From the IMG/VR virus record IMGVR_UViG_2695420847_000017: a stretch of DNA of 5,271 bases. One strand, 5' to 3'. Below are positions 1,449 through 2,408 of the stretch, in pieces. The notes beneath the pieces were generated by a model, which was given only the letters and a program-made list of their open reading frames with translations, made no database searches and was not told the origin of the DNA. The stretch comes from a virus. Its lineage: Duplodnaviria; Heunggongvirae; Uroviricota; Caudoviricetes. The stretch's first letter is position 1. Each line of letters starts with the position of its first letter. The position numbers and the translations under genes were made by a program.

Positions 1449-2408
1449 TTAATTTACCATCAGTCTTAGAGCCAGTTCGTCCGGATAGGGATCGAAGTAA
1501 TTCTGTGTAAGCAAGTAATCATTAGGATACTCACCCAGATAATGCTTCAGCAGAGTCAACGGCGCAAGAAGAGGTAATGTGCCAGAACGATAGTTAAGTA
1601 TAACCTCGCTCAACTCTTTACGCTGGCGTGTACTTAAGTAGTTACTAAAATACCCCTGTATATGCATCAGCACATTCGTGTGATTTTTACGTGATGCAGG
1701 TTTTCTGAGAATCGCCATCAGCTTATCACGATACACCTCAAAGTATGATTCAAGGTCCGCCCACTCGTGTATTGCAGCCACAAATGGTCCCATATCTTTA
1801 TAGCCTGCCTGACTATGCGCCAACAACTGAAGCTTATAACGACTATGAAAAGCTAATAACTCTCTTCTTGATAATTTCTCCTTGTAAAGGTGATTGAGCT
1901 CATGCAAAGCAAAAACTCTTTCAACAAAATTCTCACGAAGCACTGGATCATGTAATCGCCCATCCTCTTCAACCGGTAGCCAGGAAAACTTTTCCATCAA
2001 AGTGCTCGTAAATAGTCCCACTCCATCTTTACGACCTCGATTACCATTTTCATCATAGACACGCACGCGCTCCATGCCACAGCTGGGAGATTTAGCACAA
2101 ACCACAAACCCCGATACATCCTTTAATTTGTCCATATAAGAACGACTAAACTCTGTCATTCTCTCTGTCACATCCTCATTCTGGTCGTGGCTGAAACACA
2201 TCCGTATATTTCCTTGCGTCGAGCGCACAAGACGTAGAGCAGGACGCGGAACTGGCAGCCCTATAGCCATTTCCGGACATACTGGTCTGAATGTTACCCA
2301 TTCCACTAATTTGTCCATTAAAAAGTCAGCTCTTTTGTGACCACCATCAAAACGAACAGCAGAACCGGCCAAACAACCGCTGATTCCAATCACAGGTTTT
2401 TTTATCAT
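1449..2408 (-). CDS. DUF523-DUF1722 fusion protein (TudS-like thiouracil/4-thiouridine desulfurase domain fused to a YbgA-like domain), 319 aa
   Basis: ATG at 2408 with AGGGGGAG Shine-Dalgarno. N-terminal PVIGISGCLAGSAVRFDGGHK with Cys12, Cys44 (RPVCPE) and Cys105 (VVCAKSPSCG) matches the three-Cys [4Fe-4S] pattern of DUF523/TudS. The C-terminal half resembles YbgA/DUF1722. Assigned from memory of the family, not from a search. Confidence 0.7.
   Translation of the reverse strand: MIKKPVIGISGCLAGSAVRFDGGHKRADFLMDKLVEWVTFRPVCPEMAIGLPVPRPALRLVRSTQGNIRMCFSHDQNEDVTERMTEFSRSYMDKLKDVSGFVVCAKSPSCGMERVRVYDENGNRGRKDGVGLFTSTLMEKFSWLPVEEDGRLHDPVLRENFVERVFALHELNHLYKEKLSRRELLAFHSRYKLQLLAHSQAGYKDMGPFVAAIHEWADLESYFEVYRDKLMAILRKPASRKNHTNVLMHIQGYFSNYLSTRQRKELSEVILNYRSGTLPLLAPLTLLKHYLGEYPNDYLLTQNYFDPYPDELALRLMVN

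Follow-up and report, generated by a model that had tools for sequence, protein, structure and literature searches.

A RudS-family gene in the cargo block between antiterminator Q and the holin gene of a lambdoid prophage

The window analysed here is a stretch of 5,271 nucleotides from a Caudoviricetes record of IMG/VR (IMGVR_UViG_2695420847_000017), and all positions refer to it unless another locus is named. It contains a cargo block of three genes, a Blc-like lipocalin gene, rudS and an AraC-like regulator gene, placed between the gene for antiterminator Q and the holin gene. The features are as follows.

1-179, minus strand: 5′ portion of essD (holin), the first of the lysis genes, from the annotation of a collinear locus (L001) and alignment
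280-305, minus strand: terminator-like hairpin with a U-tract at the end of the cargo block before the holin gene, from RNA folding
367 to 1097 or 1106, minus strand: AraC-type (YdeO/GadX-like) regulator gene with HTH_18/HTH_AraC matches, frameshifted
1375-1402, minus strand: best sigma-70-like site of the window by consensus match (TTTACA-16-TATGAT, 10/12), upstream of the AraC-like gene
1449-2408, minus strand: rudS, encoding a 319-aa TudS(DUF523)-DUF1722 fusion, predicted tRNA 4-thiouridine desulfidase
1482-1835, minus strand: DUF1722 domain of rudS (aa 192-309; PF08349, E 2e-40)
1962-2390, minus strand: TudS/DUF523 catalytic domain of rudS (aa 7-149; PF04463, E 3e-40)
2373-2375, 2277-2279 and 2079-2081, minus strand: codons of C12, C44 and C110 in the TudS/DUF523 domain
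2409-2600, no strand: divergent rudS-lipocalin intergenic region with the presumed lysogen promoters, 95% conserved among four alleles
2601-3125, plus strand: gene for a Blc-type outer-membrane lipocalin lipoprotein of 174 aa (PF08212, E 7e-44), on the strand opposite to rudS
3159-3182, minus strand: intrinsic-terminator-like hairpin with a U7 tail directly after Q, candidate tR′, from a terminator scan
3281-3673, minus strand: antiterminator Q (PF06530, E 2.5e-51), annotated as 3281-3658 in relatives (L001, L002, L003)

On the strand of rudS, the genes ybcN, ninE, ybcO, rusA, ylcG and Q lie upstream and the start of essD lies downstream. In the closest complete genome, which is near-identical, the stretch is found inside a complete lambdoid prophage at a tRNA-Arg gene (argU) beside fimZ. 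Because phage genes flank rudS and the surrounding prophage is complete at this site, the first-pass annotation, made from the letters alone, was correct in describing the gene as prophage cargo. Prophages of the DLP12, Qin and lambda types share the order Q-blc-rudS-araC-holin, which recurs in two sequenced phages and in 74 of 80 IMG/VR contigs, the other six having no detectable match to at least one of these genes. The block fits a phage moron in its insertion between Q and the holin gene, its deviant GC content, its terminator-like hairpin and its presence in three prophage backbones. The slot between Q and the holin gene is the one in which Stx phages carry stx. No tRNA or known RNA gene was found in the block, where two sub-threshold Rfam matches, one of them overlapping a terminator hairpin, were returned, and none of the three cargo proteins had a PADLOC match to an anti-phage defence system.

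The lipocalin scores 316 bits against the NCBIfam Blc subfamily (cutoff 267) and is 60% identical to K-12 Blc. It has the lipobox TLIAC, is under purifying selection (dN/dS of 0.06 against its counterpart in phage 1H12), and its gene is always the divergent partner of rudS. In infant-gut lambda phages, blc has been described as a moron present in more than 50% (PMC6969025). The AraC-like gene is broken in the window by a change from T8 to T7 (poly-T at ~969-975), which splits it into an N-terminal piece of 44 aa and a C-terminal ORF of 195 aa; intact copies encode 243 aa according to the alignment, and the NCBIfam YdeO-like score is far below cutoff. Truncation of this gene is seen in 17 of the 73 IMG/VR loci in which the start was found, with the length of the T8 run altered in 10 of these 17. 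The run was readable in 52 IMG/VR loci and has eight residues in 42, seven in 7, six in 2 and nine in 1, a variation that could reflect slip-strand switching, recurrent decay or homopolymer sequencing error.

An ORF check of the window found rudS intact, with an ATG start and a product of 319 aa, at exactly the limits first assigned to it (1449-2408, minus strand). A Pfam search recovered both PF04463 and PF08349, in agreement with the DUF523 and DUF1722 architecture that had been proposed, and the product thus joins both domains in one polypeptide, as RudS proteins of ~310-340 aa do. It also matches PHROG 3275 over its full length. The C-terminal half had been called YbgA-like, and aa 164-315 are indeed 49% identical to YbgA of E. 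coli K-12, where, as noted in the same annotation, ybgA adjoins the photolyase gene phr, with 4 nt shared between the two. Against the NCBIfam YbgA equivalog PRK10167, however, the protein scores 190.8 bits with a cutoff of 237, and only aa 160-315 are matched. Because this score is below the equivalog cutoff, the RefSeq name "YbgA family protein" fits the C-terminal half only. The AlphaFold model of the product, which is of moderate quality (pLDDT 73.7, with residues 14-27 and 284-319 low), matched TudS alone among solved structures (6zw9, 6z93, 6z96 and 6z92; E 2.5e-4 to 1e-3 with Foldseek). This match has a probability of 1.00, a TM-score of 0.67-0.71 on the target and 26% identity from aa 1 to ~160.

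The residues expected to hold the iron-sulfur cluster needed one correction. The first-pass annotation had named C12, C44 and C105; the first two stand, aligning with C10 and C43 of TudS, but residue 105 is an alanine, and the third ligand would be C110, within the motif KSPSCG. The product has five cysteines in all (12, 44, 71, 104 and 110), and we compared them in an alignment of 139 diverse full-length homologues that are 37-60% identical to it. Cysteine is kept at C12 in 137/139, at C44 in 137/139 and at C110 in 135/139. In the column of C104, cysteine occurs in 10 of the 139 and lysine is the commonest residue, and in that of C71 it is absent from the common residues. Two stand-alone DUF523 proteins from phage records likewise place the cysteine of SPSCG opposite C110 and a lysine opposite C104. 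Sequence searches did not reach the third ligand of TudS (C104 of 6Z92), as both phmmer and a 10-sequence profile stopped at residue 58-66, and a 76-aa fragment around KSPSCG used as query gave chance ribosomal-protein matches only. The ligands published for RudS_vir are Cys12/Cys44/Cys110 (PMC11417400). By alignment, then, the predicted TudS-type triad of the rudS product is C12/C44/C110, so that both domains and a conserved set of three aligned cysteines are present, as first proposed, with the third ligand misplaced in that proposal.

The other catalytic residues are kept as well. Mutagenesis has found E51, R60, S111 and S113 to be essential in RudS_KT (PMC11417400), and by constant offset and motif only, C17/C49/C114, E51, R60, S111 and S113 of that protein correspond to C12/C44/C110, E46, R55, S107 and S109 here. 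Among the 139 homologues, E46 is conserved in 138, R55 in 137, S107 in 138 and S109 in 130. In the DUF1722 domain, S239/R240 would be the counterparts of S243/R244 of RudS_KT by constant offset and are invariant among enterobacterial homologues.

The function of the gene had been labelled speculative, which no longer holds for the family. The DUF523-DUF1722 fusion was named RudS in 2024 by Jamontas et al., who characterised it as a [4Fe-4S] desulfidase converting 4-thiouridine (s4U) in tRNA into uridine in a cluster-dependent reaction (PMC11417400). One of their proteins, RudS_vir, is gp66 of Escherichia phage 1H12; it was synthesised and lowers tRNA s4U in E. coli, as did all six of the six orthologues expressed there, itself included, and stand-alone YbgA left tRNA s4U unaffected (PMC11417400). 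RudS_vir (NC_049947) also has 319 aa and aligns without gaps to the window protein at 93.4% identity, with the same Cys12/Cys44/Cys110. The two alleles differ by 21 amino-acid substitutions and ~8% nucleotide divergence. Given the identical catalytic residues and strong purifying selection, we infer that the window allele probably lowers tRNA s4U as RudS_vir does.

A role in handling thiolated nucleobases or nucleotides, or near-UV damage, had also been suggested for this gene. The link with thiolated uracil and near-UV holds in outline, but the emphasis on free thiouracil and thionucleotides does not, as the substrate of RudS is s4U in tRNA. The stronger form of that emphasis would make the product a TudS-like salvage enzyme that acts on free 4-thiouracil, 4-thiouridine or 4-thio-UMP from tRNA turnover and not on intact tRNA. 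Its catalytic domain is homologous to TudS and keeps every catalytic residue, and among the RudS proteins RudS_vir had the shortest lag on 4-thiouracil in a uracil auxotroph, in addition to being weaker on tRNA than RudS_ST of Salmonella at similar protein levels (PMC11417400). Because of these two properties of RudS_vir, the phage clade may be more promiscuous. Even so, RudS proteins supported growth poorly on 4-thiouracil and not at all on 2-thiouracil, none matched TudS, and RudS_vir did lower tRNA s4U, and the authors concluded that thiouracils are not the primary substrates (PMC11417400). The fused DUF1722 domain, moreover, is conserved under purifying selection and has been proposed to bind the anticodon arm of tRNA, with mutagenesis implicating it in this binding (PMC11417400). 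We therefore regard salvage as unlikely and as a weaker explanation than activity of RudS on tRNA s4U.

Comparison with named systems places the window protein firmly in this family. TudS (PDB 6Z92/6Z93/6Z96/6ZW9) is a stand-alone DUF523 protein of ~150-166 aa with free thiouracil and 4-thio-UMP as substrates; the window protein shares its fold at the N-terminus but is a 319-aa fusion to which a DUF1722 domain is added, and the substrate of its family is tRNA. YbgA (E. coli K-12 b0707, upstream of phr) is, conversely, a stand-alone DUF1722 protein without a catalytic domain. In one genome (H42, NZ_LR890334.1), rudS is interrupted by an IS1 element and annotated as two pieces, DUF523 and YbgA-family, an arrangement that mimics the separation into single-domain proteins put forward by the RudS authors as an evolutionary route (PMC11417400). 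The family prototype, RudS_KT (Pseudomonas putida PP_0741), known from biochemistry and mutagenesis, has the same two-domain architecture and is encoded in a light-controlled phrB-LitR-rudS operon, whereas neither a photolyase nor a MerR-type gene neighbours the window gene. Chromosomal enterobacterial RudS proteins such as that of Citrobacter braakii also have 319 aa, are 70-77% identical without indels and share the catalytic residues, STM1389 being outside this comparison. RudS_ST, which is ORF319 of Salmonella LT2, is a chromosomal enterobacterial RudS.

The closest relatives are in phages. A phage IdasGreatGrand protein shares 99.7% identity with the window protein, and phage 1H12 shares the neighbours Q, the opposite-strand Blc lipocalin gene, the AraC-like gene and the holin gene, although 1H12 is a lambda-type phage and the window copy belongs to a DLP12-type prophage at the argU/fimZ site. 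The AraC-like neighbour is frameshifted in the window and encodes 243 aa in 1H12. In Citrobacter, rudS closes a run of nine co-oriented genes that has a MerR/MlrA-like regulator gene upstream, whereas phage rudS lacks both the run and the regulator and has the Blc and AraC-type genes instead; GC3 is 40% in phage rudS and 63% in the Citrobacter gene. The window ORF is thus a known enzyme, RudS, in a known phage cargo slot, and the gene sets itself apart from bacterial RudS by its genomic setting and not by its protein.

The composition of the block raises the question of whether rudS is of any current use. GC content is 43% in rudS, 32% in the AraC-like gene and 32-44% in the block, whereas the three flanking phage genes that were measured have about 51-53%. 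AT-rich DNA that was acquired horizontally is often silenced in E. coli. The gene could on these grounds be a passenger without current function, decaying or silenced and dragged along with the Q-holin module, a reading with which the frameshift in the adjacent regulator and occasional IS insertions in rudS (H42) are also consistent. The gene itself behaves differently. Between the window and 1H12 alleles, dN/dS is 0.106 at a dS of 0.29, and rudS is intact in 80 of the 80 IMG/VR loci with its neighbour often broken. All catalytic residues are kept, and the orthologue RudS_vir is active when expressed (PMC11417400). This pattern clearly points to purifying selection, making the passenger explanation very improbable and, like salvage, weaker than the reading as a RudS enzyme acting on tRNA s4U.

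The gene is also widespread. Of 5426 complete E. coli genomes, 1136 have a match to rudS, which covers at least 80% of the gene in 1064 of them, and almost all of these copies are chromosomal. E. coli has been said to lack RudS (PMC11417400), which is true of K-12 and is qualified by these 1136 genomes with a prophage copy. Our scan of IMG/VR for phage-borne RudS kept 80 loci, all of which belong to the same clade, with identities of at least 98%. The nearest homologues outside E. coli are chromosomal Citrobacter genes at 76-77% identity, and no species-representative genome exceeded 77%, two contaminated MAG contigs aside. Because no closer donor was found and GC3 differs (40% versus 63%), the phage rudS lineage appears to be old or to come from an unsampled source. 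The two short contigs, assigned to 'Candidatus Nanosynbacter sp.' (L146, L151), hold 94-100% identical pieces of prophage rudS and are almost certainly bin contamination.

The surroundings of the bacterial genes deserve a brief description. The Citrobacter run (L006-L008, 3175-10960) is conserved and encodes SnoaL, SDR, FAD amine oxidase, DUF1365, cyclopropane-fatty-acid-synthase-like (CMAS), DUF2878, chalcone-isomerase-like and DUF3833 proteins, with RudS last, and it ties tRNA de-thiolation to apparently lipid-modifying chemistry. We considered a joint origin of the prophage lipocalin and rudS genes from such a chromosomal operon and rejected it, as the 175-aa Citrobacter counterpart has no lipocalin similarity and is weakly chalcone-isomerase-like. 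Many conjugative plasmids of Klebsiella, Enterobacter and E. coli carry a DUF3833-rudS pair with 73-74% identity to the window protein. Klebsiella IncF plasmids carry these last two genes of the Citrobacter run, and on a Klebsiella pneumoniae IncFII plasmid (L004, 8453-9960) the pair is flanked by IS903B on one side and, on the other, by a carbohydrate porin gene and the lac operon. The plasmid pair resembles a piece of the chromosomal operon.

As for expression, promoter and terminator scans of the window gave no more sites than shuffled sequence, and individual sites are leads only. Within the divergent intergenic region (2409-2600), there is a weak sigma-70-like match at 2577-2550 on the minus strand (9/12 consensus). 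The spacer between rudS and the AraC-like gene (1107-1448) is 340 bp long, AT-rich and holds the sigma-70-like site at 1402-1375 on the minus strand; the site is kept in the 1H12 spacer, which has otherwise diverged with several indels. The hairpin at 3159-3182 folds with -14.9 kcal/mol (z -2.5) and is invariant in four alleles, and its position suggests a candidate tR′ of the late promoter region. The second hairpin, at 280-305, has -8.1 kcal/mol (z 0.3) in the window versus -12.1 (z -2.25) in 1H12 (L002, ~7072-7098), with a 1-nt deletion in the stem; because NZ_AP027759 has the same deletion, we regard it as an allele and not a read error. Since rudS is co-oriented with the late operon and lies downstream of the putative Q-controlled terminator, it is likely to be transcribed after prophage induction. 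Position and consensus scans together suggest that rudS may be co-transcribed with the late operon and have its own promoter in the lysogen.

A light-responsive operon with MerR/LitR or photolyase genes, which is a frequent but non-defining feature of RudS, is absent at the window locus, and neither the window nor five related prophage and phage loci yielded a MerR or photolyase gene. Because the usual MerR/LitR-type regulator is missing, light control of the window rudS cannot be assumed. Having left the MerR-linked operon for a place next to an AraC-type regulator, phage rudS must be under a control other than the light-responsive one proposed for bacteria.

Taken together, the best overall explanation, to which we assign a probability of roughly 85%, is that the window ORF is a RudS acting on tRNA s4U and forms part of the Q-holin cargo block. 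Following the published chemistry, the TudS-type domain would hold a [4Fe-4S] cluster on C12, C44 and C110, and the 4-thiouridine at tRNA position 8 (or 9) would be bound through its sulfur by the fourth iron. With R55, S107 and S109 setting its position, E46 would activate water so that the sulfur is replaced and uridine is formed, with the DUF1722 domain holding the tRNA near the anticodon arm. Removal of s4U would be expected to blunt UVA-triggered tRNA cross-linking, growth delay and the stringent response. In the published work, overexpression of RudS_KT reduced the UVA growth delay from ~105 to ~60 min, a phenotype seen for RudS_KT under overexpression only (PMC11417400). The benefit of the gene is speculative, in that lysogens might tolerate UVA better or the phage might protect late protein synthesis after sunlight-type induction.

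A more specific proposal is that rudS serves the phage itself, being switched on with the late genes after induction by UV or sunlight and erasing the s4U near-UV sensor of the host. We consider this possible but doubtful. Late protein synthesis would then be spared UVA-cross-linked tRNA, translation arrest and the stringent response. In the lysogen, rudS could lower an s4U-dependent brake on SOS and prophage induction; such a brake was reportedly described by Caldeira de Araujo and Favre in 1986, with one secondary citation describing it differently.

The window gene adds little to what is known of RudS as an enzyme, because the family, its chemistry and a near-identical phage orthologue have already been published. 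The annotation "YbgA family protein" and the PHROG entry of unknown function nevertheless hide a known activity and could be updated. With 1136 of 5426 complete E. coli genomes carrying a prophage rudS, natural lysogens offer a native E. coli system for the function of RudS. If the doubtful proposal of a direct benefit to the phage were true, rudS would be a phage-encoded eraser of a tRNA modification that rewires a host stress checkpoint, and about one in five complete E. coli genomes would carry such an eraser.
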